Positions 13,214-64,000 of a stretch of 64,000 nt of DNA are shown one piece after another. The notes beneath the pieces are model-generated. The model was given only the letters and a program-made list of their open reading frames with translations. It did no database searches and was not told the origin of the DNA. Source of the DNA: Phyllobates terribilis (lineage: Eukaryota); contig NW_027362768.1 in assembly GCF_046119375.1 (NCBI RefSeq), forward strand, positions 56,668,001 through 56,732,000, given 5' to 3'. Positions within the stretch are counted from its first letter, which is position 1. Every line of letters begins with the position of its first letter. The position numbers and the translations under genes are program-made.

Positions 13214-16200
13214 TATATATCCATCTGAACTAACAGTCCGTCTGAGGACTAATCCAGCTGCATATATTCAGTGGTATTTGCAGGAGTTAGGCAGGCAGGG
13301 TATGTGGCAGACTGCAGTGCATATAGTGCAAGAGGGTCCATTGAACGTCCCTGCTGCTGTTCTTACAGATATTTGTAGACATAGCACCAGATATCAGGGG
13401 CCAGGGAAAAAAAAATGTGATCTTAATCCTGGTTATTTGCTTGAAAAGCAATCCAGAGTGCACCATTTTTCTGCTCCATTTGCTTGTTCTCACTGCAGAA
13501 TAAAGCCAGATCTGTTCCATATTTCAGCAATAAAAATCCAGAAATTTAAACTGAATGTGGAAAATATTGACCTCCTTTTCAATTCTGTTGCAGTGTCTCG
13601 GTCAAGCTATTCATACTAGGTGTCTGTGAAGAATAGTATTAGTAAATTACAGGCCTTCTATTTAAAACCGTGGTTCTCTGTCAGACATATCACCTATAAG
13701 AGTGTTCCAAAATCAGACATTTCTTTCATTTTCATTCTGTTGCAGTGTGTCAGTCAAGCTGTTCACACTAGGTGTCTGTGAAGGATAGTATTAACAAATT
13801 ACAGGCCTGCTATTTAAAATTGTGGTTCTCTGTCAGACGTATCACATATAACTGCGTTCCAAAATCAGCCATTTCTCGTGAACTTGGAAAATACTGTCCT
13901 CCATTAAAAATGGACAAGGTGCGTGGCAAGGGACAGGGAAGTGGACGTGATGGTGTTGGTGCATGCAAAGGCCGAGGACGTGGCCGTGGGCAAGCTGAAA
14001 TTGTGCCACAACAAACACCCACATCTTGTCGCTCGACCTTCCTGCCCCAATTAATAAGGGGCCGCAGAACCCCACTATTGAACAGAGAGCAGTATCAAAA
14101 GGTTATTGGTTGGATAGCAGATAATGCTTCCAGTCATTTAGCCACCACCACCACACCACCCTGTCTTCCACACGGTCAAGTCTCAGTAGCCGTGAGTCTG
14201 GACTGCATATTCCTCACACTGATTCTCCTTCCTCTAACCATGCCGAGTGCCCGGAGACAACTAATCCCACACTTGGACACTCCGAAGAGCTGTTCACTTT
14301 TCCATTTTTAGATTCGGGCCTCTCGCCCGGCCAGCTTCAAGCGAGTCAAGAGGAGATGCCCAAATATTGGAGCAGTCACGATCACACGAAGGCGACGGTG
14401 GGAAACTGCAATTACTGTCGCAAGAGGTGAATGATAATGATGATGAGACAAAATTGCCAGAAAGTCAGGAGGAAGACCAGGGTGCAGAAGTGGAAGACGA
14501 GGTGGTGGATGATATAGTAACTGACCCAACCTGGTAGGGGGACATACAGAGTGAGAACAGCAGCACACAAGGGGAGGGAGGCGTAGCACTACAACAGGCA
14601 GGAAGAATCAGTGTGGTGGCCGCAGACACAAGGCCGTAAAGCGTTCCTCATAACGCCAAAACAACGGAAGTTGCCAGCACAACTGTTAGGTCTTCCCTAA
14701 TCTGGTAAATTTTTTAAAGACTCTGCAGATAACCCCAAAATGGCCATTTGCACCACCTGCCAGGCCAGCATCAGCAGGGGTAGCAAAACTAGCAGGCTGA
14801 CCACAACCAGCATGATCAGGCACATGGCAGCAAAATACCTAAGTGGACAGAACCCCAGGGTCCAGAACAGAGTGACACCACTGCTTATTCCACTGTTGTG
14901 CGTGCACGCCATTCCCCTGTCCATGGCGCATGCCAAGATACCTCCTGCCCTTCACGTGTCAGTGCTAGTTGAGAATGTACAACATCAGCAAGCACGTGCA
15001 CGTCCTTGTTCCAGCGCAGCGTTCAGTTGTCCCTACTCCAGTCCTTGGAATGCAAGCACAAATATGCAGCCAACTCCCCACAGGCCACACTACTAAATTC
15101 ACAAATTTTGAGAATGCTTGTGCTCGAAATTTGCCTTTTAGGCTCGTGGAGATGGAATCTTTCCGCAACCTGATGGTGGCGGCCGTCCCTCGGTATTCGT
15201 TCCCCAGCCACCACTATTTCTCCTGGTGTGCCATCCCTGCATTACAAGAGCACGTGTCCCACAACATTAGACGTGCCCTCAACAACGCAGTTAGTGGGAA
15301 AGTCTAGAGATGAGCGTTGTTCTACTCGAACTGTTCGCCAATCTCAAATTCGAGCTGTTTTGGGCGGTGTTCGAGCCGGTCGGCGAACACGAACAATTTG
15401 AGAAAAATTCGGCTGTTCGAGGTTATGTTCGATAACTGTTCGTGCACCAAAATCATAACTGGATTTTTTCTCAGTAATGATGAAAATTAATGTTAATACG
15501 CAGTTTGAGTGTACAGCGGGGTGGGGGCAGGGGCAGGGGATGGATCTCTGCAGGAACAATGAAGATCTCCATTTTTTTTTCTCTTTCCCGCATTTGCAGT
15601 GGGGAGGTGCAATCTGTCAGCCTATCAGCAGCGCACACACGGAGCGAAGTGCTTTTTTTCACACAAGCAAGGGCATGTGTGATTGGCAGTGTATGTCACA
15701 TGTCCTTGCCCTATAAGACCAAGCCATTTTCCCCGTCGCCACCATTTTCTCACTGCTGCAGCTGCGTGTTAGACGGCACCGCTGTTGCTGTGTGCGCTAT
15801 ACCTTGTTAATTTCAAGCCAATTTTCGCACAAATATACAGATAGCTTGGGAGTAGGGAATAGTTGTGATTGCAGTCCTTTTAAGGACTAGGTTACAGCAT
15901 TTCCTACGACTTTTATCAGGCAGGTCTGTGCTCTTAAATAGATAGATTGTGGGAGTAAAGACTAATTGTAATTGGAGTCCTTTTCAGGACTAGGTTACAT
16001 CAGTTCCTATCAGTTTTTGCCAGGCAGGTCTGTGCCAGTGCTGTGCAAGTTTTTTTCACAGCATTTGGCTGAATCTAGCAAAGCTAATCCTTTTTGGCCT
16101 ATTGCAGAGTGTGTTAGTCAGTGGAGTAGCCTATCTGTGTTGCAAGATATACCACCTGTGTATAGAATACCAATTTTTTTACTGCACCTAGTGAAGTAAA

Positions 16201-16221
16201 ATCTTTTGGGCATAGCATCAT

Positions 16222-17827
16222 TCTATTAGTCCATCTATACTGACCTCCATCAGGTTGCAAACTGAATATAATTTTTTTCTGCATCTAGCTCTGAAAAAAT
16301 ATTTGGGCTTCTAGCAGTGTGTGGGACTTGGTCTATTAGTCCATCTATACTGACCTCCATCAGGTTGCAAATTAAAAATAATTTTTTTCTTCATTTATCT
16401 CTGAAAAAATATTTGGGCTTCTAGCAGTGTGTGGGACTTGTTCTATTAGTCCTTCTATACTGACCTCCAGCAGGTTGCAAATTGAATATAATTTTTTTCT
16501 GCATCTAGCTCTGAAAAAATATTTGGGCTTCTAGCGGTGTGTGGGACTTGGTCTATTAGTCCATCTATACTGACCTCCATCAGGTTGCAAATTAAAAATA
16601 ATTTTTTTCTGCATCTAGCTCTGAAAAAATATTTGGGCTTCTAGCAGTGTGTGGGACTTGGTCTATTAGTCCATCTATACTGACCTCCATCAGGTTGCAA
16701 ATTAAAAATAATTTTTTTCTTCATTTATCTCTGAAAAAATATTTGGGCTTCTAGCAGTGTGTGGGACTTGTTCTATTAGTCCTTCTATACTGACGTCCAG
16801 CAGGTTGCAAATTGAATATAATTTTTTTCTGCATCTAGCTCTGAAAAAATATTTGGGCTTCTAGCGGTGTGTGGGACTTGGTCTATTAGTCCATCTATAC
16901 TGACCTCCATCAGGTTGCAAATTAAAAATAATTTTTTTCTGCATCTAGCTCTGAAAAAATATTTGGGCTTCTAGCAGTGTGTGGGACTTGGTCTATTAGT
17001 CCATCTATACTGACCTCCATCAGGTTGCAAATTAAAAATAATTTTTTTCTGCATCTAGCTCTGAAAAAATATTTGGGCTTCTAGCAGTGTGTGGGACTTG
17101 GTCTATTAGTCCATCTATACTGACCTCCATCAGGTTGCAAATTAAAAATAATTTTTTTCTTCATTTAGCTCTGAAAAAATATTTGGGCTTCTAGCAGTGT
17201 GTGGGACTTGTTCTATTAGTCCTTCTATACTGACCTCCAGCAGGTTGCAAATTGAATATAATTTTTTTCTGCATCTAGCTCTGAAAAAATATTTGGGCTT
17301 CTAGCGGTGTGTGGGACTTGGTCTATTAGTCCATCTATACTGACCTCCATCAGGTTGCAAATTAAAAATAATTTTTTTCTGCATCTAGCTCTGAAAAAAT
17401 ATTTGGGCTTCTAGCGGTGTGTGGGACTTGGTCTATTAGTCCATCTATACTGACCTCCATCAGGTTGCAAATTAAAAATAATTTTTTTCTGCATCTAGCT
17501 CTGAAAAAATATTTGGGCTTCTAGCGGTGTGTGGGACTTGGTCTATTAGTCCATCTATACTGACCTCCATCAGGTTGCAAATTAAAAATAATTTTTTTCT
17601 GCATCTAGCTCTGAAAAAATATTTGGGCTTCTAGCAGTGTGTGGGACTTGGTCTATTAGTCCATCTATACTGACCTCCATCAGGTTGCAAATTGAATAAA
17701 AAAATTTTCTGCATCTAGCTCTGAAAAAATATTTGGGCTTCTAGCGGTGTGTGGGACTTGGTCTATTAGTCCATCTATACTGACCTCCATCAGGTTGCAA
17801 ATTAAAAATAATTTTTTTCTGCATCTA
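16222..17827. repeat. Tandem array of a 110-bp unit, ~14.5 copies
   Basis: CCATCTATAC (or CCTTCTATAC) recurs every 110 bp from 16231 through 17771. Confidence 0.97.
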
Positions 17828-17943
17828 ACCCAGCCAATAGTTTTGGCCTAATACCACAGTTTGGCCACTCAGCTCTGCTCGGTTACCATCCATTGTTTTT
17901 TTGTGCAAACAACTCCAGAGTTGTGAATTAGTTAACCACCAAA

Positions 17944-20900
17944 ATGAGTGGAAAAAGGCCTGCTGCTGGTGGAAAGGGGAATAGGCGTGTTGGGAAGGGG
18001 AAAAAAGGTTGTGTCCGTGGGGTAGGTGCAGAAGAAAGACCATCTTCCAGCCAAACTAAAATGTCTACTTCTTTTAGCGGACAATGTGATAAGATCCCTT
18101 TCTTACGGCCACGCCAATCGCTACAAATTCCAGATGAGGCACAAAAACAGCAGGTGCTTCAACGGATATCAAGTGCTCCTTTAAGTGGGCTCTCCTCCAC
18201 ATCAACTTCAACATCACAAATACTCCAGTCCTCAAAGGTGTCACCCAAATCGCACTTGCTTCCTCACAGCTCCCAAATCTCCAGCTGCCCGTCTGAGTAT
18301 GAGGTAGAACAGATGGTTGAGTCTGCAGAGCTGTTTACTCATACTATAGCCTGGGAATCAGAGGTAGACTCCAGCGCTTCTGTGAATCCAGACGAGGAAA
18401 TGATCTGCACTGATGCCCAGAATCTTTATGAGTCGGATCCAGGACCAGACGCAGAAGGTTCTGACCATAATGTAGACCCTCATTCCCAAACTGTAACTCC
18501 TGTTGGTGGAGACAATGAGGAAGACGATGATAAGACTCAAATACCTGATTGGAGCGACAACTTTAGTTTTTTGTCAGGGCAGGAACAGGTTGGCTCTGAG
18601 GACGACGGGTGTGATAACGCACAGGGTGATGATGATGAGGTCGGAGATCCCACTTACTGTCAACCCACAGTCAGCCAAGAGATGAGGTCAGCAGAGGAGG
18701 TGGAGGAAGATGCTAGTGACGACGAGGTCAGGTTGCGCCTTCCTGGACAGAGACGTAGTACTGGAAGCACGTCAACAACTGCATCCTCAAACACAACTCT
18801 GCCTCTCACCACAAGTCGTGGTGGCTCTTCAGGTCGCATGGGTGCTAAGCCTTGCATAGCCTGGTCATTTTTTCAGATCGATAAAGATGACCCAACTCGT
18901 GTTATCTGTAACATTTGTCAGCAAAAGCTAAGTAGAGGCCAAAAAATACATAGTTTGAGTACTTCATGCATGAACCGGCACATGGACATGAAGCATAAGT
19001 TGCAGTGGGAAGCTCAGTGTGCTACAATGCGGTCTAGCCGGCCGGGCCAACCACCGTCTGCCATATCTTGTGCATCCGCGGCCTCTTCATCCTCTGTGAC
19101 TGGGGGGACAGCAGTCACACCTGTTTTGGGGCGCAGACCTGCCACCTCTTTACCCGCAACAGCCAGCGTGATTGGCAGGTCATCATTTTCTTTGGAGGTG
19201 GTAACACCAGCTGGTCTTGAGCGCTGTCCGACATCGATAGCACCACCTTTGGATCAAGGCAACCTAACATGTCCGCCTGCATCTTCCTCACAGACCGGCA
19301 GTTTGCCGGGGACACCCTTATCAACCCCGTCTAAGCACAATAGCCAGCCCTCGGTCCCTCAGATGTGGACAAGTAAAAGACCATTTCCTCCTAGCCATGA
19401 GAAAGCTAAGAGGTTGAATTTCACCATCTGCAAGCTCTTGGCTACAGAAATGCTGCCTTTCCGCCTGGTGGACACAGAGGATTTTCGAGACCTTATGTCC
19501 GTCGCAGTGCCCCAGTACCAGATGCCCAGTCGGCACTACTTCTCAAAGAAAGGTGTGCCTGCGCTCCACCAGCATGTCGCACACAACATCACCGCTTCTT
19601 TGAGAAACTCTGTGTGTGACAGGGTGCATTTCACCACAGACACTTGGACGAGTAGGCATGGACAGGGGCGTTACATGTCGCTGACTGGGCACTGGGTAAC
19701 TATGGTGACAGCAGGACAAGGGGCTGCTGTCCAAGTCTTGCCGTCCCCACGAGTTGTGCGTCAATCCTCTTTATGTCATTTTTCCTCCACTGCTTCTGCC
19801 TCCTCAACCTCCTCTCGGTCTTCCACCTGCACCCAAAGCCTGTCTGGTCATGCCACAAGCTTTCTAACTGCGCAGAAGGGATCCTGCACACCTCCTTACT
19901 ATGCTGGCAGTAGGGCTCAACGTCATCAGGCGGTTTTTACATTGAAATGTCTGGGAAATGTGAGTCACACAGCTGAGGAGTTGTGGTCAGCTCTGGAGAA
20001 CCAATTTCATGAATGGTTGTCTCCACTGGACCTGAAACCAGGGAAGGCCGTGTGCGACAATGCTGCAAACCTGGGTGCGGCCCTTCGCCGGGGCAATGTC
20101 ACACACGTGCCTTGTATGGCTCACGTGTTGAACCTGGTTGTCCAGCAATTTTTAGCCCACTATCCCAGACTAGATGGCCTTCTGCAGAGGGCACGGTCGC
20201 TGTGTGCTCACTTCCGCCGTTCGCATCCCGCAGCTCAGCGACTTACATCTCTACAGAAGTCGTTGGGCCTGCCACTTCACCGGCTAAAATGTGATGTGCC
20301 TACCCGGTGGAATTCAGCTCTGCACATGTTGCAGCGACTGTGGCAGCACCGACAAGCCCTGGTGCAATACGTTCTGACGTATAGCCTGGGCCAACGAGAT
20401 TCAGAGGTGGGGCAAATCACGCTGGAGGAGTGGTCTCAGATCAGGGACCTATGCACCCTTCTGCACAGTTTTGAAATGGCGACGAAGATGTTTAGTTCTG
20501 ACGATGCCATTATCAGCATGACTATTCCGGTGATTTACATGCTGGAGCACATGTTAAACAGAATTCGGAGTCAGGTGGTGGCACAAGAGGAGGTGGAGGA
20601 AGTAGAGGAGGAGGAGTTGTATGCGGAAGGGCTAACATCTGCAAGGTCCAGACGGTCGGCAGCACCAGGGCGGCAGGCATGTGAGGGTGGGGGAGATGAT
20701 TTTACCAGGGCGCATGGTAGCAGCCAAACTAGTGAGGAAGGTGCAGGAGCCCAGGAAGAAGTGGAGGACGAACTGATGGAAGACTCATCAGATGAGGGAG
20801 ACCTTGATCACATTTCTGTTGTGCGAGGTTGGGGGGAGAGGACAGAGGAAGGAAGCATGATTGTTACCTCGCCACCAACACAACAGGGACTTGGTGCTCC

Positions 20901-21624
20901 TGGATGCGCAACACACATGAGTGCCTTCTTGCTGCACTACCTGCAACATGACCCTCGAATTGTGAGAATTAGAAATAATCCTGACTACTGGGTTGCCACA
21001 CTGTTAGATCCCTGGTACAAAAGTAAATTTGCAGAAATTATTCCTGCCATAGAAAGGGATGCACGCATGCAGGAGTATCAGCAGAGACTGTTGCAGAATC
21101 TTACATGTGCTTTTCCACAAAATACCAGTGGTGCACGTAGTGAATCTCACAGTTCCAACTTGCCAACCGTGGGACCGTCAAGTGTTCAGCACTCAAACCG
21201 TAACAGAACCACAGTATCTGCTGGTAACATCAATTTTGCGGAATCATTTCACCACTTTTTTAGCCCATCCTTTGCAAGGCCACAGGAGACAAGAAGTCTG
21301 ACACATAGTCAACGCCTAGAGACGATGGTACAGGAGTATCTCCAAGTAAACATTGAAGCCACGACTGTGTCACTGGACCCTTGCTCTTTTTGGGCTTCCA
21401 ATCTGGATAAATGGCCGGAGCTAGCCACTTACGCCTTGGAGATCTTGTCATGCCCCGCAGCCAGCGTTCTGTCTGAACGTGTGTTCAGCGCTGCTGGTGG
21501 TGTGCTGACAGATAAGCGCACGCGGCTCTCCACTGATAATGTAGACAGACTCACGTTCATAAAGATGAACAAATCATGGATCCGAAACGACTTTTCTACC
21601 CCTGTGTCATCCTGGGGAGAGTAA
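17944..21624 (+). CDS. hAT-superfamily transposase, 1226 aa, uninterrupted (BED zinc finger, DDE catalytic domain, C-terminal dimerization domain)
   Basis: BED finger WSFF...VICNICQQKL...MNRHMDMKH. Catalytic motifs FTTDTW, VCDNAAN, CMAH (CxxH), DVPTRWNS and SERVFSAAG. No stop or frameshift over 3681 bp. In-frame upstream TAG at 17929-17931. Confidence 0.96.
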   Translation: MSGKRPAAGGKGNRRVGKGKKGCVRGVGAEERPSSSQTKMSTSFSGQCDKIPFLRPRQSLQIPDEAQKQQVLQRISSAPLSGLSSTSTSTSQILQSSKVSPKSHLLPHSSQISSCPSEYEVEQMVESAELFTHTIAWESEVDSSASVNPDEEMICTDAQNLYESDPGPDAEGSDHNVDPHSQTVTPVGGDNEEDDDKTQIPDWSDNFSFLSGQEQVGSEDDGCDNAQGDDDEVGDPTYCQPTVSQEMRSAEEVEEDASDDEVRLRLPGQRRSTGSTSTTASSNTTLPLTTSRGGSSGRMGAKPCIAWSFFQIDKDDPTRVICNICQQKLSRGQKIHSLSTSCMNRHMDMKHKLQWEAQCATMRSSRPGQPPSAISCASAASSSSVTGGTAVTPVLGRRPATSLPATASVIGRSSFSLEVVTPAGLERCPTSIAPPLDQGNLTCPPASSSQTGSLPGTPLSTPSKHNSQPSVPQMWTSKRPFPPSHEKAKRLNFTICKLLATEMLPFRLVDTEDFRDLMSVAVPQYQMPSRHYFSKKGVPALHQHVAHNITASLRNSVCDRVHFTTDTWTSRHGQGRYMSLTGHWVTMVTAGQGAAVQVLPSPRVVRQSSLCHFSSTASASSTSSRSSTCTQSLSGHATSFLTAQKGSCTPPYYAGSRAQRHQAVFTLKCLGNVSHTAEELWSALENQFHEWLSPLDLKPGKAVCDNAANLGAALRRGNVTHVPCMAHVLNLVVQQFLAHYPRLDGLLQRARSLCAHFRRSHPAAQRLTSLQKSLGLPLHRLKCDVPTRWNSALHMLQRLWQHRQALVQYVLTYSLGQRDSEVGQITLEEWSQIRDLCTLLHSFEMATKMFSSDDAIISMTIPVIYMLEHMLNRIRSQVVAQEEVEEVEEEELYAEGLTSARSRRSAAPGRQACEGGGDDFTRAHGSSQTSEEGAGAQEEVEDELMEDSSDEGDLDHISVVRGWGERTEEGSMIVTSPPTQQGLGAPGCATHMSAFLLHYLQHDPRIVRIRNNPDYWVATLLDPWYKSKFAEIIPAIERDARMQEYQQRLLQNLTCAFPQNTSGARSESHSSNLPTVGPSSVQHSNRNRTTVSAGNINFAESFHHFFSPSFARPQETRSLTHSQRLETMVQEYLQVNIEATTVSLDPCSFWASNLDKWPELATYALEILSCPAASVLSERVFSAAGGVLTDKRTRLSTDNVDRLTFIKMNKSWIRNDFSTPVSSWGE

Positions 21625-21831
21625 AAGCTTGATGATTGGTTAAAATCACCCTACCAACCGTTTTAAGCTTTCAAATTACTAATCATGTTTATCTGTATCT
21701 TGACTGGAAAATAATTTGGGCTTTGTAGCAGTGTGCAGCACTGATCCTATTAGGCCATCTATAATAAGCTTCACCAGATTTAAAATTAAAAATAATTTTT
21801 AGCTGCATCTAGCCCGGAAAATAATTTTGGG

Positions 21832-23393
21832 GCTCCGAGATGCGCAAGACACATAAGTGCCTTCTTGCTGCACTACCTGCAGCATGACCCTCATATTGTC
21901 AGAATTCGAAGTAATCATGACTACTGGGTTGCCACACTCTTAGATCCCCCAAACTTTTCGATCAACCTTTTCATTTTAATAAAGACCAAAAAAATGGTCA
22001 TTTTTGAAATTATAAGCATTAGCAGGTTGTTAGAAACTGAAATCAAACAGTTTTCAACTCAAAACTTTATTCTAGGTGATGTTACATTTTCACATAGGAC
22101 CCCTTGTTCGAAAGGAGCTTCTGAACTCTCTCGTCCATTGAATTTGTCAGGTTTTGGATGGTTTCTGCTTCAATTGTTTTGCATGAGGACAGAATACCCT
22201 CCCAGAGCTGTTGCTTAGATGTGAACTGCCTCCCGCCATCATAGACACTCCTTTTAATGATGCTCCAAAGGTTCTGAATGGGGTAGAGGTCAGGGGAGCA
22301 TGGGGGTCACACCATAAGTTTGTCCCCTTTTATGCCCATATCAGCCAGAGATGCAGATGTTTTATGTGCAGCATGAGATGGTGCATTATCATGCAGAAAA
22401 ATGATCTTGCTGTGAAATACACGGTTCTTCTTCTTGAACCATGGCAGGAAGTGCTGTTTGAGAAAATCCACATACATTATGGAGTTCATCTTTAGCGCCT
22501 TCAGGGATCCTAAAGGGGCCGACAATCTCTCTCCCCATGATTCCAGCCCAAAACATTACTCCACCTCCTCCTTGTTGGCGCTGTAGCCATGTTTGCGTGG
22601 GGTGTCCATCAACCAGCCATCCTCCACTCCATTCATCTGGACCATCGAGCGCTGCACGGCACTCATCCGTGAACAAAACAGTTTTGAAATCAGTCTTCAT
22701 GTAATGTTTGGCCCACTGGAGCCGTTTCTGCTTGTGTGAAGTGGATAGAGGAGGTCGACAGGATGGCGTATGCACAGCTGCAAACCTCAGAAGGACCCTG
22801 CATCTTGTTGTTCGGGGGACGTTGGAGGCACAAGCAGCTTCAAAAACTTGTCTGCTGCTATGACGAGGCTTTTTTGCCGCTGCTCTTTCAACCTGACGTA
22901 ATTGCCTGTAGGAAAGAGTCCTCAATTTGCCCTTATCAGCACGCACACGTGTGTACTGTGAATCAGCTACATACTTCTTGATTGCCAAGACACTTCATCC
23001 TGATCATCGCACAATGTTGATTGTAGTCATGCCTTGACCTAAACACTCCACAATTTGTTGCTTCTCAGCAGCCGACACATCCTTTTTCTTTCCCATTTTG
23101 GCAGAAAATGTAGGCTGCTTAATAATGTGAGAGAGCCTTCTTAAGTAGTCTTGCCTTTCATTGGACACACCTGCCAAACTAATTAGCACAGGTGTCTGCA
23201 ATTGCTTACAGTGATATAAAGAGCCCTGACACACATCACCATCAATGAGTTTAACTGACAAACAAACAAATTCTTCCCTTATCACTCCTAAACACTTTTT
23301 GCATAATAATTTGGAACGCGGTGTACATGTGCTTTTCCACAAAACACCAGTGGTTCACATAGTGAATCTTACAGTTCTAACTTGCCAACCGTG
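21832..23393 (+). pseudogene. Diverged partial second copy of the hAT-A transposase 3' region, split by a Tc1
   Basis: 21832-21949 matches ~20897-21013 at about 90% (LLHYLQHDP.IVRIR.N.DYWVATLLDP). 23324-23393 matches ~21104-21173. Confidence 0.85.
21951..23323 (-). mobile_element. Decayed Tc1 transposon inside hAT element A
   Basis: 5' TIR reads CACCGCGTTCCAAATTATTATGCAAA on the minus strand, followed by TA at 23324-23325. ORFs 22389-22988 (VLFTDE...VMFWAGI) and 22307-22525 (FLHDNAPSH). 3' TIR missing. Confidence 0.9.
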
Positions 23394-23399
23394 GTCTGT

Positions 23400-23850
23400 A
23401 TGGAATTGTTCAATAAAGGGCCCAAAATTAAGATAACATAGATGGGAGAGGTCTCTATGAATAGGAATTCCTAAGTATTTGATACCCTGTGAGGGCCAGG
23501 CAAAGGGAAAGTTGGACTGGATGGAATCCTATATGGATTTAGGGAGGGAGACATCGAGGGCCTCAGACTTCGCTGCATTGATTTTAAAATTTTACCATGT
23601 AACAAAGTGATCTATTTCAGCCATAACAGCAGGGATGGATATATGTGATTGAGTGATATATACTAGGACATCATCAGCAAATAGAGAGCACTTGTACTCG
23701 GTGCCTCCCACCTCAATCCACCTAATATTGGGGTTATGGCGAATTGATGAGAGCAGGTGCTCCGTCACTAGGATGTATAAGAGAGGGGACAGAGGACATC
23801 CCTGCCTTGTCCCATTGGTGATTGTGAAAAGTGATGAAAATGTTCTGACG
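23400..23850 (-). mobile_element. LINE (L1-clade) reverse transcriptase fragment
   Basis: ORF 23592-23954 contains FTITNGTRQGCPLSPLL...SLFADDVLVY. Confidence 0.85.
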
Positions 23851-25056
23851 CACCCCCTGGGCCTTGGGACACCCGGAGCCGGACCCTTTTTGGTGGATGC
23901 TGGTGGTTGTAGTCTTTGTGGCGGCGATCCGGTTCCGTGGCTCAGGGCGGTCAAACCAGTGGCGGAACTATTTATGTGGTTTTGATGTTTAAATGTCCGA
24001 CTACGCCACCCGTGGATTGCGGTCAGAGTGAACCGCCGCTACAGGGCAGACCGCTAAGGCTGGTGTTGTGGGTGCAGCAGAGCGTAGCATAACTCCCCAC
24101 GGGAGGAGTATAGCCTCAGGGCAGTGTATGCGGAGGATGGGGGTGATGGTGCAGGGCAGCAGCAGTAACGACACGGAGTCAGTGATGCAGTTCAGGGCCT
24201 TTACTCACAGTTCTTATTATCCAGACCACGTCTGCAGGTAACGGCTGCCCACGTCGTACTGTGCTCACCAGGTGAGGGGCTCAGACAACTCCCAGATAAC
24301 TTTGGAGCGCTTCACAGGACCCCCTTTGTGTGTCCTTTGTCTGGCCTTTCTTACCAACACTTCTGTCCGGCTGCCTCGGGCCTCCTCTTGGTAAACTTGG
24401 CGCCAGTTTCCCTGACCCTATGTGGTGCCTTCCTAGCGGGTGGAGCAAGGGGCTGCGCCACATAAAATGTCAGAGCCTCCGGTTTCTAGCTGAGGGTCGT
24501 TTCCTGCCTCCACTAGTTCGGGGACCGGTCTCCCCCTTTGGCCTGACCCCTCCACGCAGGTGGATTCGGGCGTGCGGTGGCGACTCGCCCGTCCGCACCC
24601 CTGGGATCCCTTCATTCCTCGTTCCTGGAGCCTTCTCCGCTCCTCTTCCTTCCTTCTCCCTCTTGCAGGCCTGGGCCTCTGTTACTAGGCCTGCCTCCGG
24701 AGCAGAGCTCATGCAGAGCCCCTGCTCCCTGCCACTTCTGCTCAGACTTCTCTGCACTGAACTAAGATAGTGCCCACCTTTTATACTCCCTTCTCAATGC
24801 ACCCAGGAACTGCTTCCTCCCTGCTCCTGCACTGCAGGGTTCCCCTTCCTCAGTGTTCCCTCCCCCCACTCCAGCCAGGGACAGGGACTGTCGTGCCCAT
24901 CTCAGGGGCATATTGGTCGCCCTGCCCCACGGCAATGTGGTGTAATGCATGCAGGTGTCGGGTCCTGATCCACACTCCATCCTTATCTGAGAGTGAGATA
25001 TCACACCTCTGGGTGAGGTGCAATACGTCTGTAGCAACCGAGCCCTCGGTGCTACA
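23850..25056. mobile_element. GC-rich ~1.2-kb non-coding insertion, possibly a solo LTR
   Basis: Sharp GC shift that truncates the L1 fragment. Ends in the hairpin TGTAGCAACCGAGCCCTCGGTGCTACA. No convincing ORF; left boundary uncertain. Confidence 0.4.
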
Positions 25057-29798: not shown

Positions 29799-29809
29799 TA
29801 TGCTATATA

Positions 29810-36045: not shown

Positions 36046-36049
<4 letters not shown>

Positions 36050-36093
<44 letters not shown>
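36050..36093. repeat. (TA)22 microsatellite
   Basis: Uninterrupted TA run. Confidence 0.97.
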
Positions 36094-36098
<5 letters not shown>

Positions 36099-50873: not shown

Positions 50874-50876
50874 TAA

Positions 50877-53816: not shown

Positions 53817-54489
53817 TAGTGTTGAGTAAGCATGCTCGACACTGCTCGGTACTCGCCCGAGCATCACGCTACTCGAAATGTTCGGCGAGCACGGAGCATT
53901 TCCGGGTTACTCGGGCGGGAGCTCGGGTCTCCGCCCTGCATGTTTGGCACTCTTTACAGAGCCAATGAACATGAAGGGATTGCCAGCCAGTCACTGTAAT
54001 GCCGCAGCCATATTGGTTGTGGGCATTACATTGATTGGCTGGCCGCACAGCGTCACCTCGAGTATTTAAAACAGGGCGCCGCCATCTTGGACACAGACGG
54101 CTGGGATCAGACAGTGTAGGGACAGCACTGCTGATTTAGGGAGAGATATATACTGCGAAATAGTTAGTGTAGGGTCTGTAAAGGCTGCCACATCAAACAA
54201 ACAGTCCTTCTCAGGACTAATATCCATCCCAGATATCAGTCAGGCAGGCAGGCAGGCAGGCTGTATAGTAGACACAGTGGTTATACCAGCAAATGCGGCA
54301 TTACAGTCCTGTGTGCTCCTGTTGCTGAAATTGCTGGACTTAGCTCCAGGTCACGGGGGCCAGGAAAAATCCTTTTTTTTTCATCTAAATCCTCTTTTTT
54401 TTTTCCTCCTTCACACTGTACAAATACCTGTCTTATTAACCTTTTGGTGTCCCACCCCCCAAAAAAAAAAAAAAAAGTCTGTCTCTCAT

Positions 54490-57400
54490 TTTTCAGACAC
54501 AAATATATCTGTTGAAAATAGTCTGGTGTAGGCCAGAGAGACAGAAGTGTGGTTTTGCTGTTCCACGCTAGAAAATCTCTATTATCCTGCTTTTGGCATT
54601 TTTTTGCTGTGAAAAAAAACTAATATTGTCTCCCTGATTTTTCAGACAAAAATATATCTGTTGAAAATAGTCTGGTGTAAGCCAGAGAAACAGAAGTGTG
54701 GTTTTGCAGTTCCACCGGTCAAATCTCTGTATTATCCTGCTTTTGGAATTTTTTGCCATAAAGAAAAACAGTAATAGTGTCTCCTGATTGTTCAGACACA
54801 AATATATCTGTTGAAAATAGTCTGGTGTAGGCCCAAGAAATGGAAGTGTGGTTTTGCGGTTCCACGGGTCAAATCTCTGTATTATCCTGCTTTTGCCATT
54901 TTTTGCCGTAAAGAAAAACAGTAATAGTGTCTCCTGATTGTTCAGACACAAATATACAGTACAGATCAAAAGTTTGGACACACCTCATTTAAAGATATTT
55001 CTGTATTTTCATGACTATGAAAACGGTACATTCACACTGAAGGCATCAAAACTATGAATTAACACATGTAGAATTATATGCTTAGCAAAAAAGTGTGAAA
55101 CAACTGAAAATATGTCTTATATTCTAGGTTCTTCAAACTAGCCACCTTTTGCTTTGATGACTGCTTTGCACACTCTTGGCATTCTCTTGATGAGCTTCAA
55201 GAGGTAGTCGCCGGAAATGGTTTTCACTTCACAGGTGTGCCCTGTCAGGTTTAATAAGTGGGATTTCTTGCCTAATAAATGGGGTTGGGACCATCAGTTT
55301 TGTTGTGCAGAAGTCTGATGGATAGACAGATGGTAGTCCTACTGAATAGACTATTAGAATTTGTATTATGGCAAGAAAAAAGCAGCTAAGTAAAGAAAAA
55401 TGAGTGGCCATCATTACTTTAAGAAATGAAGGTCAGTCTGTCCGAAAAATTGGGAAATCTTTGAAAGTGTCCCCAAGTGCAGTTGCAAAAACCATCAAGC
55501 GCTACAAAGAAACTGGCTCACATGAGGACCGCCCCAGGAAAGGAAGACCAAGAGTCACCTCTGCTTCTGAGGATAAGTTTATCCGAGTCACCAGCCTCAG
55601 AAATCGCAGGTTAACAGCAGCTCAGATTAGAGACCAGGTTAATGCCACACACAGTTCTAGCAGCAGACACATCTCTTCAACAACTATTAAGAGGAGACTT
55701 TGCACAGCAGGCCTTCATGGTAAAATAGCTGCTAGGAAACCACTGCTAAGGACAGGCAACAAGCAGAAGAGACTTATTTGGGCTAAAGAACACAAGGAAT
55801 GGACATTAGACCAGTGGAAATCTGTGCTTTGGTCTGATGAGTCCAAATTTGAGATCTTTGGTTCCAACCACCGTGTCTTTGTACGATACAGAAAAGGTGA
55901 ACGGATGGACTCTACATGCCTGGCTCCCACCGTGAAGCATGGAGGAGGAGGTGTGATGGTGTGGGAGTGCTTTGCTGGTGACACTGTTGGGGATTTGTTC
56001 AAAATTTAAGGCATACTGAACCAGCATGGCTACCACAGAATCTTGCAGCGGCATGCTATTCCATCAGGTTTGTGTTTAGTTGGACCATCATTTATTTTTC
56101 AACAGGACAATGACCCCAAATACACCTCCAGTCTGTGTAAGAGCTATCTGACCAAGAAGGAGAGTGATGGGGTGCTACGCCAGATGACCTGACCTCCACA
56201 GTCACCAGACCTGAACCCAATCGAGATGGTTTGGGGTGAGCTTAACCGCAGAGTGAAGGCAAAAGGGCCAATAAGTGCTAAGCATCTCTGGGAACTCCTT
56301 CAAGATTGTTGGAAGACCATTTCCGATGACTACCTCTTGAAGCTCATCAAGAGAATGCCAAGAGTGTGCAAAGCAGTCATCAAAGCAAAAGGTGGCTACT
56401 TTGAAGAACCTAGAATATAAGACATATTTTCAGTTGTTTCACACTTTTTTGTTAAGTATATAATTCCAAATGTGTTAATTCATAGTTTTGATGCCTTCAG
56501 TGTGAATGCACAATTTTCATAGTCAGGAAAATACAGAAAAAACTTTAAATGAGAAGGTGTGTCCAAACTTTTGGTCTGTACTGTATCTGTTGAAAGTAGT
56601 CTGGTGTAGGCCTGAGAAATAGAAGTGTGGTTTTGCAGTTCCACGGGTCAAATTTCTGTATTATCCTGCTTTTGGCATTTTTTGCATAAAGAAAAACAGT
56701 AATAGTGTCTCGTGATTGTTCAGACACAAATATATCTGTTGAAAATAGTCTGGTGTAGACCCGAGAAATAGAAGTGTGGTTTTGCAGTTCCACGGATCAA
56801 ATCTCTGTATTATCCTGCTTTTGGCATTTTTTGCCGTAAAGAAAAACAGTAATAGTGTCTCCTGATTGTTCAGACCGCAAATATTTCTGTTGAAAATAGT
56901 CTGGTGTAGGCCGAGAAATAGAAGTGTGGTTTTGCAGTTCCACGGGTCAAATCTCTGTATTATCCTGCTTTTGGCATTTTTTGCTGTAAAGAGAAACAGT
57001 AATAGTGTCTCCTGATTGTTCAGACACACATATATATGTTGAAAATAGTCTGGTGTAGACCCGAGAAATAGAAGTGTGGTTTTGCAGTTCCACGGGTCAA
57101 ATCTCTGTATAATCCTGCTTTTGGAATTTTTTGCTGTAAAGAAAAACAGTAATAGTGTGTCCTGATTGTTCTGACACAAATATATCTGTTGAAAATGGTC
57201 TGGTGTAGGCCAGAGAAACAGAAGTGTGGTCTTGCAGTTCCATGGTTCAAACCTCTGTATTATCCACTTTTGGGCCATTTGTATCTAAAGAAAAACAGTT
57301 TGAGTGTGTCGCTCACTGTTCAGCCGCAAATATATATATTTATAAAAGTCTGGTGTACACCAGTAAATTATAACTGTGGTTTTGCTGTTCCACGGTAAAA

Positions 57401-57960
57401 AATCTCTATTATCCTGCTTTTAGCATTTTTTGCTGTAAAAAAACAACTAATAGTGTCTCCCTGATTTTTCAGACACAAATATATCTGTTGAAAATAGTCT
57501 GGTGTAGGCCCGAGAAATAGAAGTGTGGTTTTGCAGTTCCACTGGTCAATCTCTGTATTATCCTGCTTTTGGCATTTTTTGCCGTGAAAAAAAACTAGTA
57601 GTGTCTCCTGATTTTTCACACAAAAATATATCTGTTGAAAATAGTCTGGTGTAGGCCAGTGAAACAGAAGTGTGGTTTTGCAGTTCCACGGGTCAAACCT
57701 CTGTATTATCCACTTTTGGGCCATTTGTATCTAAAAAAAACAGTTTGAGTGTGTCGCTCACTGTTCAGCCGCAAATATATCTATTTAAAATTGTCTGGTA
57801 TACCCCAGTAAACAATAACTGTGGTTTTGCCATTCCACAGTAAAAAATCTCTGTTATTCAGCTTTTGGTATTTTTTCCGTAAAGAAAAACAGTAATAGTT
57901 TCTCCCGGATTGTTCAGATTGTTTAAAAGAGTCGGGTGTAGGCCAGTGAAATAGAACTGT
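54490..57960. repeat. Tandem array of a ~150-bp unit (~13 copies) upstream of the hAT-D transposase, split by a Tc1
   Basis: TCTGTTGAAAATAGTCTGGTGTAG anchor (or a degenerate form) at ~54508, 54657, 54807, 56586, 56735, 56886, 57035, 57185, 57484 and 57631. Confidence 0.95.
54957..56583 (+). mobile_element. Complete but inactivated Tc1 transposon, 1627 bp
   Basis: TA|CAGTACAGATCAAAAGTTTGGACAC...GTGTCCAAACTTTTGGTCTGTACTG|TA. Transposase 55368-56420 with WSDESKF and FQQDNDPK motifs, interrupted by stops. Confidence 0.95.
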
Positions 57961-58047
57961 GGTTTTCCTCTTCCACGGTTCTAATCTACTTTTTATTACC
58001 CTTTTTCCATTGATAGTGCAAGTGTAAGCTATTTTACTTCCTTTACA

Positions 58048-60359
58048 ATGGGCAAGGCGCGTGGCAAGGGACGTGGTACTGGACGTTCTGGTGATGGTGC
58101 GTGCAGAGGACGGGGCCGTGGCCAAGGCGAAAATGTGCCACAACCAACAGCCACATCTTCTCGCTCCCATTCTTGACCAAATTACTAGGAAAGCACAGAA
58201 CAACACCAGTATTGCGAAATGATCAGTGTGAACAGGTTATTAATTGGATAGCAGATAATGCTTCCAGTGGAGACGGAATCCTTCCGCAACCTTATGGCGG
58301 TGGCCATCCCTCGGTACTCGGTCCCCAGCCGACACTATTTTGCCCGGTGTGCCATCCCTGCACTACTCAAGCACGTGTCCCAAAACATCTACCGTGCCCT
58401 CAAAAACGCAGTTACTGGGAGAGTCCACCTGACAACAGACATGTGGACAACTGCTTGAGGCCAGGGACAGTACATCTCCCTGACGGCACAATGGGTAAAC
58501 ATAGCGGAAACCGGGACCCAGTCGGTCCTTGGGACGGAACACATCCTCCCCACACCGAGGATTGCGGGCCCTATGTCAGTCAGAGTTGCCCCCACAGTGT
58601 ACAGCTCCTGCGCATCATCCTTCTCCTCCTCTTCATGTTCAGCCTCCATCTCAGATATCACCACATCAGTTACAAGCTGGAAGCACTGCAGTACTGCCTC
58701 CGCCAAGCGGCAACAGGCTGTGCTGAAACTCATAAGCTTAGGTGAGAAACCTCACACTGCTTGTGAGTTGTGGACAGCTGTGAAAGCGCAGGCAGATCTG
58801 TGGCTGACACCGCTGAACCTACATCCAGGCATGGTCGTGTGTGACAATGGCCGTAACCTGGTGGCGGCTCTGAGGCGAGGCGAGATCACACACGTACCAT
58901 ACCTGGCTCATGTGCTTAACCTCGTGGTTCAGCGGTTTCTTAAATCATACCCAGAGTTGCCAGATCTGCTTGTCAAAGTACGCCAACTGTCAGCTCATTT
59001 TCGGAAGTCGGCTACAGCTTCCGCCGCCCTTGCTGTGTTGCAGCAGCGTTTGCAGCTTCCGTCACACCGACTGGTGTGTGATGTCCCCACACGTTGGAAC
59101 TCTACCCTCCACATGTTGCAATGGATTTGTGAGCAGAAGAGAGCAGTTGTGGAGTAGCAGCTGCAACAAGGCCATCGATATTCAGGTCAGACTCCACACA
59201 TAAGACCTCAGGAGTGGACCTGGATGTCTGACACATGTACCATCTTGACAAACTTTGAGGAGTCCACCAAGAGGGTGAGTGGCGATGACACCATCATTAG
59301 CGTCAGCATTCCACTTGTCTGTCTTTTGCAACGCTCTCTGCAGAGAATTAAAGAGGAGGCATTGCAGCCAGAGTATGATGAGATCGATCAAGAAGCCGTA
59401 GCGGTCGATTACACACAGCCCAGCCTCATCTCATCCCAATGTGCATTGGGGGACAATGAGGGAGAGGAGGAGGAAGAACAGGAGCTTGTATCATGCGCTG
59501 TAGACGGTAGTACCTGTACAACTGTCATACTGTCGGTTCAGCGTGGGTGGCCTGAGGACAGGGGGGAGGAGGGGGAGGAGGAGGAGGAGGAAGAGGAGGA
59601 GGAGAGCATGGTCAGTTGTCTTCTTGGTGAGGACACGGAAGTCTTGCCCATTACCAGTTTGGCACGCATGGCTGACTTTATGTTACGCTGCCTTAACCGT
59701 GACTCTCGCGTTGTCAAAATGTTGGGTGAAAGTCATTACTGGTTGGTGACACTTTAGACCCCCGCTACAAGGAGAACTTTCTCTCTCTTATTCCTGAGGT
59801 GGAGAGGTCTACAAAAATTGGGCAGTACCAGAAGGCTCTTGCTGCAGAACTGTTAAAAAAAATTCCCATCTGAACACGCTAGAGGCAGAGGTCACAGTTC
59901 ATTGCCCAACCAAGGCGTACATGCGAGAGAGATGCAACTCCAATCCAGCAGAGGCAGGGGAACACTGTCAACGTTCTGGGACAGTTTTCTCAGACCCTCC
60001 CTTCGGCAGACCCTGAGGCGTGGGGTACTCTCACAAGGAGTGGAAAGTTTCAAAAGATGGTGAGGGAGTACCGTGGCAACCGTACCAGCGTCCTCCGTGA
60101 TTCCTCTGTGCCTTTTAATTATTGGGTATCCAAGCTGGACACTTGGAATGAACTCGCTCTGTACGCCTTGGAGGTCCTGGCCTGCCCTGCCGCTAGCGTG
60201 TTATCGGAGCGTGTTTTTAGTGCTGCTGGTGGAATTATAACTGATAAGCGCACTCGCCTGTCAACTGACAATGCTGACAAGCTGACCCTTATCAAAATGA
60301 ACAAGGGCTGGATTGGGCCAGACTTCTCATCACCACCAAATGACAGCAGAGTAACATAA
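58048..60359 (+). pseudogene. hAT-D transposase pseudogene lacking the BED finger
   Basis: Starts MGKARGKGRG. Jumps from WIADNASS directly to VETESFRNLM. Contains LTTDMW, VCDNGRN, DVPTRWNS and SERVFSAAG, with several stops and frameshifts. Confidence 0.92.
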
Positions 60360-60559
60360 AGTCAAATCCACTGTGTTATTTTGGGAGGTGTATTCACATG
60401 CACCGCTTCACACCTACACATGGGTATACGCTTACTCATTTCGGCTGTTTTATGTTCTTCTCCTTATCCTTAGCCTCCACCACCACTATACCACCAAGGT
60501 GACCGTGTTCCGTGTTGCCATTATTGAAAGTTCCTCCGTCCTTATTTTTGTCAGCTTTT

Positions 60560-63500
60560 GTTTGGAAGCCATAAGCAAAGACTGTGGGAGACCCACTCCC
60601 CAATAATGGGAATAATATTTTTAAGATGCTGTACTGTATGGCTCTTGTAAGGGGCATTCAAACCATCTTGTTAAGCTACTGTGACCTCCACCACTTTTTT
60701 ACCAAGGGGCATTAAAACCGTCTTTTTAATCTACTGGGACCTCCACGTCTCTTCCAAGGTGCATTAAAACCGTCTTGTTAAGCTACTGGGACCTCCACGT
60801 CTCTTCCAAGGGGCATTAAAACCGTCTTGTTAACCTACTGGGACCTCCATGTCTCTTCCAAGGGGCATTCAAACCATCTTGTTAAGCTACTAGGACCTCC
60901 ACGTCTCTTCCAAGGGGCATTCAAACCGTCTTGTTAAGCTACTGGGACCTCCACGTCTATTCGAAGGGGCATTCAAACCGTCTTATTAAGCTACTGCGAC
61001 CTGCACCACATTTCCAAGGGGCATTCAAACCGTCTTGTTAAGCTACTGGGACCTCCACGTCTCTTCTGAGGGGCATTAAAAGCGTCTTGTTAAGCTACTG
61101 AGACCTCCACCACTTTTCCAAGGGGCATTAAAACCGTCTTGTTAAGCTACTGGGACCTCCACGTCTCTTCCAAGGGGCATTCAAACCGTCTTATTAAGCT
61201 ACTGCGACCTGCACCAGTTTTCCAAGGGGCATTCAAACCGTCTTGTTAAGCTACTGTGACCTCCACCACTTTTCCAAGGGGCATTAAAACCGTCTTGTTA
61301 AGCTACTGGGACCTCCACGTCTCTTCTGAGGGGCATTAAAAGTGCCTTGTTAAACCACTCTGAACTCCACAGCTCTTCCAAGGGGCATTGAAATGTTGTT
61401 TTTAATTAACTCCAACCTCCACGACTCTTCGAACGGGCATTGCATTTACTCCTAAATTTTGGCAGCTTTTGCTTGGAAGGCATAAGCAAAGACTATGGCA
61501 GACCCACTCCCCAATAATTGGAATAATGTTTGTAATATGCTGTACTGCATGGCTCTTGTAAGGGGCATTGCAAGTTCCTCCATCCTAATTTTTGGCAGCT
61601 TTTGCTTGGAAGGCATAAGCAAAGACAATGGGAGACCCACTCCCCAATAATGGGAATAATGTTTGTAATATGCTGTACTGCATGGTTCTTGTAAGGGGCA
61701 TTGCAAGTTCCTCCGTCCTAATTTTTGGCAGCTTTTGCTTGGAAGGCATAAGCAAAAACTATGGGAGACCCACTCCCCAATAATGGGAATAATGTTTGTA
61801 ATATGCTGTACTGCATGGCTCTTGTAAGGGGCATTGCAAGTTCCTCCGTCCTAATTTTTGGCAGCTTTTACTTGGAAGGCATAAGCAAAGACTGTGGGAG
61901 ACCCACTCCCCAATAATGGGAATAATATTTTTAAGATGCTGTACTGTATGGCTCTTGTAAGGGGCATTAAAACTGTCTTGTTAAGGTACTGTGACCTCCA
62001 CCACTTTTCCAAGGGGCATTAAAACCATCTTGTTAAGCTACTGGGACCTCCATGTCTCTTCTGAGGGGCATTAAAAGCATCTTGTTAAGCTACTGCGACC
62101 TCCACCACTTTTCCGAGGGGCATTCAAACCGTCTTGTTAAGCTACTGTGACCTCCACCACTTTTCCAAGGGGCATTAAAACCGTCTTGTTACGCTACTGC
62201 GACCTCCACGTCTCTTCTGAGGGGCATTAAAAGCGTCTTGTTAAGCTACTGCGACCTCCACCACTTTTCCGAGGGGCATTAAAAACGTCTTGTTAAGCTA
62301 CTGTGACCTCCACCACTTTTCCAAGGGGCATTAAAACCGTCTTGTTAAGCTACTGGGACCTCCACGTCTCTTCCAAGGGGCATTCAAACCGTCTTATTAA
62401 GCTACTGCGACCTGCACCAGTTTTCCAAGGGGCATTCAAACCGTCTTGTTAAGCTACTGTGACCTCCACCACTTTTCCAAGGGGCATTAAAACCGTCTTG
62501 TTAAGCTACTGGGACCTCCACGTCTCTTCTGAGGGGCATTAAAAGTGCCTTGTTAAACCACTCTGAACTCCACAGCTCTTCCAAGGGGCATTGAAATGTT
62601 GTTTTTAATTAACTCCAACCTCCACGACTCTTCGAACGGGCATTGCATTTACTCCTAAATTTTGGCAGCTTTTGCTTGGAAGGCATAAGCAAAGACTATG
62701 GCAGACCCACTCCCCAATAATGGGAATAATGTTTGTAATATGCTGTACTGCATGGCTCTTGTAAGGGGCATTGCAAGTTCCTCCATCCTAATTTTTGGCA
62801 GCTTTTGCTTGGAAGGCATAAGCAAAGACAATGGGAGACCCACTCCCCAATAATGGGAATAATGTTTGTAATATGCTGTACTGCATGGTTCTTGTAAGGG
62901 GCATTGCAAGTTCCTCCGTCCTAATTTTTGGCAGCTTTTGCTTGGAAGGCATAAGCAAAAACTATGGGAGACCCACTCCCCAATAATGGGAATAATGTTT
63001 GTAATATGCTGTACTGCATGGCTCTTGTAAGGGGCATTGCAAGTTCCTCCGTCCTAATTTTTGGCAGCTTTTGCTTGGAAGGCATAAGCAAAGACTGTGG
63101 GAGACCCACTCCCCAATAATGGGAATAATATTTTTAAGATGCTGTACTGTATGGCTCTTGTAAGGGGCATTAAAACTGTCTTGTTAAGGTACTGTGACCT
63201 CCACCACTTTTCCAAGGGGCATTAAAACCATCTTGTTAAGCTACTGGGACCTCCATGTCTCTTCTGAGGGGCATTAAAAGCATCTTGTTAAGCTACTGCG
63301 ACCTCCACCACTTTTCCAAGGGGCATTCAAACCGTCTTGTTAAGCTACTGTGACCTCCACCACTTTTCCAAGGGGCATTAAAACCGTCTTGTTACGCTAC
63401 TGCGACCTCCACATCTCTTCTGAGGGGCATTAAAAGCGTCTTGTTAAGCTACTGCGACCTCCACCACTTTTCCGAGGGGCATTAAAAACGTCTTGTTAAG

Positions 63501-64000
63501 CTACTGTGACCTCCACCACTTTTCCAAGGGGCATTAAAACCATCTTGTTAAGCTACTGGGACCTCCACGTCTCTTCTGAGGGGCATTAAAAGCGTCTTGT
63601 TAAGCTACTGCGACCTCCACCACTTTTCAGAGGGGCATTAAAACTGTCTTGTTAAGCTACTGGGACCTCCACGTCTCTTCCAAGGGCCATTCAAACCATC
63701 TTGCTAAGCTACTGCGACCTCCACCACTTTTCCAAGGGGCATTCAAACCGTCTTGTTAAGCTACTGTGACCTCCACGTCTCTTCAAAGGGGCATTAAAGC
63801 GTCTTCTTAAGCCACTCTGAACTCCACAGCTCTTCTAAGGGACATTGAAATGTTGTTTTTAATTACCTCTAACCTCCACGACTCTTCCAACGGGCATTGC
63901 ATTTCCTCCTAATTTTAGTCAGCTTTTGCTTTTCAATGCAAAGGCGAAAACTAAGGGAGACCCACTCCCCAATAGGGGGTAGAAGGTTTTTAGTATGCTG
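60560..64000. repeat. Composite tandem array: runs of a 52-bp unit alternating with runs of a 133-bp unit; 1203-bp higher-order repeat
   Basis: 52-bp unit CAAGGGGCATTAAAACCGTCTTGTTAAGCTACTGGGACCTCCACGTCTCTTC. 133-bp period at 61585, 61718 and 61851. Block ~61115-62320 repeats at +1203 (near-identical ORFs at 61452 and 62655). Confidence 0.95.

Follow-up and report, generated by a model that had tools for sequence, protein, structure and literature searches.

Tandem arrays amplified inside transposable elements (TEs) have been described in several kinds of element. In the accessible part of one source, Atenspm/ENSAT1 (autonomous En/Spm) in its 5' untranslated region (UTR) and Ogre/PisTR-A in its 3' UTR carry such arrays, DINE elements have central tandem repeats, and the table of TE-borne satellites contains no hAT (PMC9659126). 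Frog non-autonomous elements with internal repeats include Xstir/Xmix and miDNA4 (same part of PMC9659126) and FEDoR of Rana temporaria (available portion of PMC12054243). For poison frogs, a genome paper puts hATs at 3.9% of the assembly, and its main text, as far as accessible, contains neither 'tandem' nor 'satellite' (PMC11152451). Here, we describe a 64,000-nucleotide stretch of the Phyllobates terribilis genome (NCBI RefSeq assembly GCF_046119375.1, contig NW_027362768.1, positions 56,668,001 to 56,732,000 of the forward strand; hereafter the window, numbered from its first base) that carries four apparent hAT-Ac transposons, A to D, with tandem arrays beside the transposase open reading frame (ORF). 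A preliminary description of the window had put these arrays forward as its best candidate for an undescribed system. TE-borne UTR arrays are already known, so this part of the proposal falls away, and the architecture itself is real and wider than had been claimed.

The arrays hold fixed offsets in all six families of the clade and move with the element, which bears out the earlier view that their position is conserved and heritable. B and C belong to one family (80–84% DNA identity) and D is its sister (61–73% at the amino acid level), so the window's four elements, which had been counted as four separate cases, come down to three families. Families F, G and H were located by querying the genome with frog homologues, and copies of A, B and D were retrieved as well. 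Copies are non-independent, and the family or lineage is therefore the independent unit. With an array defined by a period of at least 45, a score of at least 200 and an edge within 400 bp of the ATG, 60 of the 77 clade copies have an array that ends at most 400 bp before the ATG, compared with an array edge within that distance on a given side at 531 of 10,668 non-clade positions (5%; the background mask also took out cargo-like long terminal repeat (LTR) sequence). Hence, the arrays are neither randomly placed nor mostly missing. By family, the 5' array is found in 19/19 copies of A, 9/11 of D, 13/21 of B, 5/7 of F, 8/13 of G and 6/6 of H, a count that leaves out C, two of the eight H copies (L135 and L138, start region disrupted) and L109–L115, L117 and L118 (start not located). 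On the other side, arrays lie within 1.5 kb after the stop in 7/7 F, 14/15 D, 12/19 B/C and 4/5 G copies. Family A differs: the degenerate 3' array once ascribed to element A shrinks to a relic of ~1.3 degenerate copies of the 5' unit (21705..21835, + strand, 71% identity), starting 81 bp after the stop, and Tandem Repeats Finder reports no 3' array in any of the 17 near-identical copies of the window type, while two other A copies have one (110 bp x2.4). As a control, among nine ORF-sized Tc1 matches an array flanks only one, which is inserted in a D array. In the same loci, 7.4% of non-clade bases lie under arrays, so arrays as such are not special to hATs here.

Position is conserved and unit sequence is not, and no monomer or length is common to the clade. 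The 5' units measure 110 bp in A, 150–152 bp in B, 146–151 bp in D (with dimer and trimer orders), 270 bp in F, 98–104 bp plus 123–127 or ~260 bp in G, and 50 bp plus 91–94 bp in H; the 3' units across families are 110, 127–133, 133 + 52, 203 + 66, 132 and 50 bp. Overall, unit lengths fall at 50, 91–93, 98–104, 110, 127–133, 146–152, 203 and 270 bp. Among lineages A, B/D, F, G and H, no two 5' units can be aligned. Unit sharing is limited to the sisters B and D, with 3' units in common (71%) and a 23-bp 5' match, and A and H use their own unit on both sides of the ORF. A shared unit motif across the clade was considered and rejected, given that units of different lineages fail to align. The expected turnover of unit sequence and copy number is thus borne out (unalignable units, 1 to ~96 copies), and the suggested co-phylogeny of unit and transposase is not: outside the sisters B and D, the units are neither homologous nor do they track the transposase tree. 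The idea of a shared functional module fares no better, with units that do not align and an F copy that keeps an intact ORF behind one 5' unit. Of the flanking signals, the paired AGGACTA...CAGGCAGG segment described as part of the common layout is present in A, B and D and absent from F, G and H.

The same data bear on whether the arrays act at the DNA level, by nucleosome phasing, insulation, as a silencing decoy or as extra transposase-binding sites. Fixed positions on either side of the ORF would fit such a role, as would the 146–152-bp 5' units of B and D. It is nevertheless the least probable of the readings considered here: unit lengths spread over 50–270 bp, element interiors have few copies of the subterminal CGA(A/G)C motif, the window type of A amplified without a true 3' array, and a strand-specific loss of ATG, described below, would not be predicted. 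Because units are unalignable across lineages, run from 50 to 270 bp and vary from 1 to ~96 copies, the arrays are unlikely to form a shared module or to phase nucleosomes, as had been suggested.

The most informative feature is an ATG-depleted leader behind a promoter-like site. At 220–410 bp inside the left end, a GATTGG-type box and a TATA-like site are found in every family, usually together with a CGCCATYTT-like motif (presumably CCAAT/NF-Y and YY1 sites), and in every family the arrays are positioned downstream of this CCAAT/TATA-like site. The promoter stretch of A aligns with that of G at 72%; past the promoter, no alignment is obtained between the leaders of the lineages A, B/D, F, G and H. 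In A, B, D, F and H, although not in G, ATGs are dense up to the TATA-like site and then cease. Counting from the TATA-like site to the start codon, with expectations from a dinucleotide shuffle, we find no ATG in 711 non-redundant bases of A (11.5 expected) or in 722 of F (10.8), 1–2 in three copies of D (17–29), 2–7 in four copies of B (13–25) and 2–8 in four copies of H (8–47; rank 1–4 of the triplets). ATG takes rank 1 or 2 of the 64 triplets in 9/9 tests on A, B, D and F; the full-length leaders of D, B and H contain repeated units, which inflates their z-scores, and the tests on A and F were run on a single unit. CAT, the reverse complement of ATG, occurs as often as expected in A, B, F and H and less often in D, and ATG is not depleted before the TATA-like site nor significantly so after the stop. 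In family A only 3 of 247 units contain an ATG. Other D copies carry up to 14 ATGs past the promoter; most of these are private, which is what decay following insertion would give. Since the leaders are unalignable and between-family synonymous divergence (dS) is 1.4–3.0 or saturated (with a nonsynonymous-to-synonymous ratio, dN/dS, of 0.2–0.27 where measurable), the depletion is retained separately in A, B/D, F and H.

This depletion, running from the TATA-like site to the start codon, suggests that the arrays are UTR repeats, grown by slippage and filtered against upstream AUGs. Our preferred reading, which we consider probable, is that the hAT-Ac arrays lie in the 5' and 3' UTRs of a single-exon transposase mRNA, as local duplications that change length fast and are tolerated if the 5' units are AUG-free. 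From the observed anatomy, fixed positions, unrelated units, copy numbers and ATG depletion in five of the six families, we infer the transcript structure, the scanning, the mutational mechanism and the neutrality of copy number as follows. Transcription would start ~30 nt past the TATA-like site, the leader would remain unspliced and ribosomes would scan through the array. The long non-coding arms, with 0.7–2 kb of unique leader sequence, would leave room for arrays that compact Tc1 elements do not have, and duplications would arise in the only places that spare both the ORF and the element ends. Copy number would then change by slippage, unequal exchange or template switching in gap repair after excision, and the arrays would change length quickly and travel with the element. 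Those on the 5' side would last in founder copies only when they add no AUG, so that only lineages with an AUG-poor leader would have kept making transposase and founded new families. On the 3' side, AATAAA is absent between stop and right terminal inverted repeat (TIR) in 5/5 B and 2/3 D copies (a raw count), and the first AATAAA after the A stop (+353) falls within a Tc1-like fragment.

Several points weigh against this account. All DNA-level data come from a single genome, a 10.6-Gb assembly, and the UTR placement is read from a signature in the DNA. The rule is not clade-wide: three G copies have 12–18 ATGs against 14–24 expected, most of the 100-bp G units contain an ATG, and some D copies have a common ATG near position 595. 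In F, both the 5' and the 3' unit have a more stable fold than shuffled sequence (z −6.3 and −4.4), which would hinder scanning; 5' units from the other families (A, B, D, G and H) fold unremarkably compared with mononucleotide shuffles. Finally, tolerance alone leaves unexplained that six families have ORF-adjacent arrays of different units, compared with none of the eight other Tc1 ORFs.

The behavior of G raises the alternative that the 5' arrays sit in a leader intron and are spliced out as neutral filler. The G leader is not ATG-depleted and has a pyrimidine tract followed by TAG or CAG 15–30 nt before the ATG, and in A a comparable CAG lies 25 nt upstream of the start codon. As a general explanation splicing seems very improbable, given that it offers no reason for the strand-specific loss of ATG over leader and units in A, B, D, F and H; for G alone it may hold. 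One raw RNA run gave 0 reads for family F. In three contig sets of uncertain kind the F leader, ORF and pre-TATA stretch are covered alike with no GT..AG joint, and these sets, which can neither place a start nor exclude splicing, are counted on neither side.

Genome-wide counts for family A are exact 24-mer matches, and unit totals are therefore lower bounds. The A leader has 64,984 matches, the ORF 64,541 and the unit 1,245,072, corresponding to ~65,000 copies and no fewer than 1.2 million units, which occupy 137 Mb or more (1.3% of the assembly). Sixteen full-length A ORFs, picked as top matches, differ by 0.37% on average; the top copies of F, with ~5,700 matches, are 0.09% apart. The 19 sampled A copies have 5.6–23.6 units, with the first and last unit types conserved and the middles shuffled. 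Leader–ORF spacing on C1, obtained for 72 of 92 leaders, implies 1.6–97 units with a median of ~14.7. When four very long spacings were fetched, one proved to be a real 10.6-kb array of ~96 units, and the other three, being insertions, were ruled out as arrays. A 45.6-unit A array also lies within an element. Across the clade copy number thus spans 1 to ~96, the lower end being the F copy L099, which combines a single 5' unit with an intact 1128-aa ORF and matching target-site duplications (TSDs).

Whether such arrays seed satellite DNA, as the preliminary description proposed, receives a divided answer. A arrays of 45.6 and ~96 units lie inside elements, and no free-standing array was seen, with every inspected A-unit array, up to 10.6 kb, lying inside an element. 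In F, the elements alone account for the 52,173 3'-unit matches against 5,672 ORF matches (9.2 each). In A there are 19.2 unit matches per leader genome-wide compared with 12.0 in the 19 sampled copies, and this excess could come from a long tail of arrays or from free satellite. Summed contig depths, which are unreliable and come from runs of uncertain type, were obtained for the F 3' unit (L099:7637–7760): 44,027 compared with ~209 on the ORF in run X1, 2,248 compared with 52 in X15 and 53 compared with 17 in X17, next to a genomic ratio of ~9. In the D copies L058, L066 and L070, a further D 3' end, carrying 133/52-bp arrays of its own, follows after ~12,200–13,900, and the flank that L066 and L070 have in common behind the first right TIR suggests a composite D that moved as a unit.

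These copy numbers also bear on the main rival, in which the arrays are selected regulatory monomers like those of the mouse L1 5' UTR, unit number tuning transposase transcription or translation and each family recruiting a new unit. All six families have an ATG-adjacent 5' array despite unrelated units, the eight other Tc1 ORFs are array-free by contrast, the most abundant counted family, A (~65,000), has the longest typical 5' array, and F units fold stably. Mouse L1 monomers boost promoter activity (in the part of PMC9022269 that was accessible). Against these stand a separate promoter-like site upstream of the arrays in every family, the lack of a motif common to units across lineages, a range of 1 to ~96 units among close copies, and the single-unit F copy with its intact ORF and TSDs. 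Moreover, an L1 depends on its monomers to rebuild the 5' end following reverse transcription, a need that a DNA transposon does not have. We regard regulatory monomers as unlikely. A bolder variant, to which we would likewise give little credence, is a DNA-transposon counterpart of L1 monomers: an AUG-free tandem 'dial' that repeatedly evolved in the transposase 5' UTR, with unit number setting dose, whose best-tuned family left more than 1 million units in ~65,000 copies, thereby contributing to the expansion of a 10-Gb genome, with satellite-size arrays built in place.

Apart from their arrays, the elements are, by all features testable here at the sequence level, ordinary hAT-Ac transposons. 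PF02892 and PF05699 score above cut-off in the A, D and F proteins, and the A transposase matches Hermes (E 3e-19) with catalytic residues D566, D705 and E1178 and CMAH at 724. The termini read TAG(A/T)G(A/T)TGAG, with short TIRs and subterminal repeats, and matching 8-bp TSDs flank A, C and D. The hAT consensus for this duplication is nTnnnnAn, and the left flanks have T at position 2 in 49/54 cases and A at position 7 in 47/54. Homologues of the A protein occur in many frogs at 38–52% identity; the nearest named ones are 'ZBED4/6-like' (38–49%), and unnamed records reach 52%. ZBED4 and ZBED6 are Ac family members (Hayward et al., accessible part of PMC3606216). Inside a clade of frog sequences FastTree gives ((A,G),((B,D),(F,H))) with Shimodaira–Hasegawa-like support of 97–100, and we keep the node uniting B/D and F/H as an open fork. 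Queries with a Leptodactylus-like and another distant homologue yielded no further family, their listed matches overlapping those of D at places that were not fetched.

Some further observations concern single members of the clade. L108 (G000:C11:515,687,926–515,697,925, minus strand) holds an intact 848-aa BED+hAT ORF that belongs to the H lineage, lacks neighboring TIRs and arrays and has an AATAAA 99 bp past the stop; it clusters tightly with P0004 and P0006 of two other dendrobatids and is possibly a domesticated ZBED-like gene. In run X17, labelled as another organism, the F leader and ORF appear as one 3,872-base contig with 18 differences (to L099:3863–7729), and from this near identity F is either nearly unchanged in a close relative or recently transferred. 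The 3' arm of F (L099:11307–11640) contains a purine-rich repeat of 60 bp, which translates as a low-complexity acidic frame.

Element A (15305..26086, + strand, 10.8 kb) is a full-length young hAT-Ac copy with the 8-bp TSD GGAAAGTC, ~99% identical to copies elsewhere in the genome and inserted in the transposase ORF of B. Its left TIR and CGA(A/G)C-rich subterminal region (15305..15504, +) have 10 motifs in the first 200 bp compared with 0.19 per 200 bp inside. A predicted core promoter (15680..15750, +) follows from sequence motifs, namely a reverse CCAAT, TATAAG at 15712 and a YY1-like CCATTTT, and the last upstream ATG is at 15700. The AGGACTA...CAGGCAGG segment is present in two copies through a ~101-bp duplication (15883..16028, +). 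The 5' array (16222..17827, +), correctly described as built of 110-bp units, has 14.6 of them without an ATG on the sense strand, is a predicted 5' UTR and stops 116 bp short of the start codon of the ORF, which is intact and encodes 1226 aa (17944..21624, +; zf-BED and Dimer_Tnp_hAT). The 3' cargo (21950–25618) comprises a broken antisense Tc1-like transposase fragment (21950..23330, − strand), which is recognized by its motifs and which most sampled A copies carry, a solo-LTR-like stretch, and an 18S rRNA piece (25499..25618, −; RF01960, E 4.8e-15) that recurs in copy L049. Family A reached its ~65,000 copies while carrying this cargo, part of which is missing in 2 of 18 sampled copies.

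Element B (13219..29561, +) is old and interrupted by A, with a broken ORF from 13910 to a stop at 27949 and a right TIR ending at 29561; its left TIR is not in the 64-kb window. The 5' array expected there, about two units of ~151 bp, is indeed found (152 bp x2.0; 13576..13876, +), ending 34 bp before the ATG, and the 3' array (131 bp x5.8; 28117..28874, +) starts 168 bp after the stop. Of C, the window holds the 3' part (51679..53816, −), with the left TIR at L031:6820 and TSD GTGAACAT; the 5' half is located past base 64000, outside the window. Its 3' arrays (129 bp x3.9 and 127 bp x5.5; 52393..53527, −) start 166 bp after the stop. D is nested in the C ORF (53817..64000, +, continuing to L031:2698; TSD GTTATAAT), with its own ORF (58048–60359) broken and a predicted core promoter at 54033..54095 (+) made up of GATTGG, TATTTAAA and CGCCGCCATCTT. 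The reported ~150-bp 5' array (54480..57918, +) is present as x3.2 and x8.9 blocks of a 150-bp unit, split by a Tc1 insertion at ~54957–56583, and ends ~130 bp upstream of the ATG. Alternating blocks of 52-bp and 133-bp units, both related to the 131-bp unit of B, form the 3' arrays (60538..63898, +), from ~180 bp after the stop.

Taken over whole elements, the layout first described for all four, from TIR to 3' array, can be followed in its full 5' order only in A and D, with the left TIR of B absent and the 5' half of C outside the window. The CGA(A/G)C repeats are, as stated, enriched in the terminal parts of A and D and in the right end of C (5–10 per 200 bp), but the left end of C has only 3, next to 0.1–0.3 in interiors; the subterminal motif of F is different. 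The several kilobases of array assigned to each element apply to D (5.1 of 12.9 kb) and not to A (1.6 kb), B (1.1 kb) or C (1.75 kb). Just past the window, a fifth clade element of the B family (L031:7284 to L032:2829) has a 131-bp x2.3 3' array. Ty3/gypsy-like LTR retroelements lie at 5303–10312, 11700–12720 and 44000–49300, some with their own non-coding arrays of 25 and 46 bp. A short cysteine-rich exon-like stretch at 2577–2703 has no Pfam match and presumably resembles a calcium-binding EGF repeat; given this stretch, the window could sit inside an intron.

Even if the arrays are passive, ~65,000 A copies, many near-identical and each with one array of 1.6 to ~96 units, constitute a large natural experiment, and a tree of these copies would allow the rates and mechanisms of tandem-repeat change and the route from TE to satellite to be measured. 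Short-read satellite surveys would likely mistake the A unit, at 137 Mb or more, for a satellite. The avoidance of ATG suggests that selection on the transposon's own translation shapes which repeats amplify, and the edge of the depletion marks a likely transcript start for a frog hAT clade annotated only as 'ZBED4/6-like'.

Compared with hAT-Ac elements such as Hermes and Ac, the clade shares the 8-bp TSD, short TIRs with subterminal repeats, and a protein with BED finger, DDE core and a dimerization domain at the C terminus; it differs in its size of 5–13 kb, its long arms with large tandem arrays and a transposase of 1120–1226 aa compared with 612 for the Hermes chain. In the open literature, the scope of our search (the repeat databases Repbase and Dfam, subscription journals and supplements fall outside it), no hAT with UTR arrays and no account of this architecture was found. 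Hence, TE-borne UTR arrays are known, and the hAT case with ATG avoidance appears to be the new part. As in Atenspm/ENSAT1, Ogre/PisTR-A and DINE, units have been amplified in stretches of a mobile element that are untranslated, or here predicted to be so, and have spread along with it; unlike in Atenspm/ENSAT1 and Ogre/PisTR-A, the predicted UTRs on both sides are involved, in six families, with ATG avoidance on the 5' side. TE-borne satellites differ in that the arrays here were seen inside elements, with no free-standing satellite. Xstir/Xmix, miDNA4 and FEDoR are likewise dispersed DNA elements of frogs, which have TIRs and TSDs and hold arrays of variable copy number in fixed places, but they have no ORF, whereas here the arrays flank an intact transposase gene. 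A FEDoR-like plan is also seen in a non-autonomous element of 3.6–4 kb, whose ends are of the A type and whose long, palindromic body is accompanied by 200-bp arrays (L114:419–4494, similar at L137:6248–9835 and L086:6437). The closest layout is that of the mouse L1 5' UTR monomers, which are tandem, upstream of the ORF, joined by a short tether, variable in number and built of subfamily-specific units (accessible part of PMC9022269); there, in a retrotransposon, the monomers are the promoter, whereas the frog hATs have a separate, putative promoter site upstream of their arrays.

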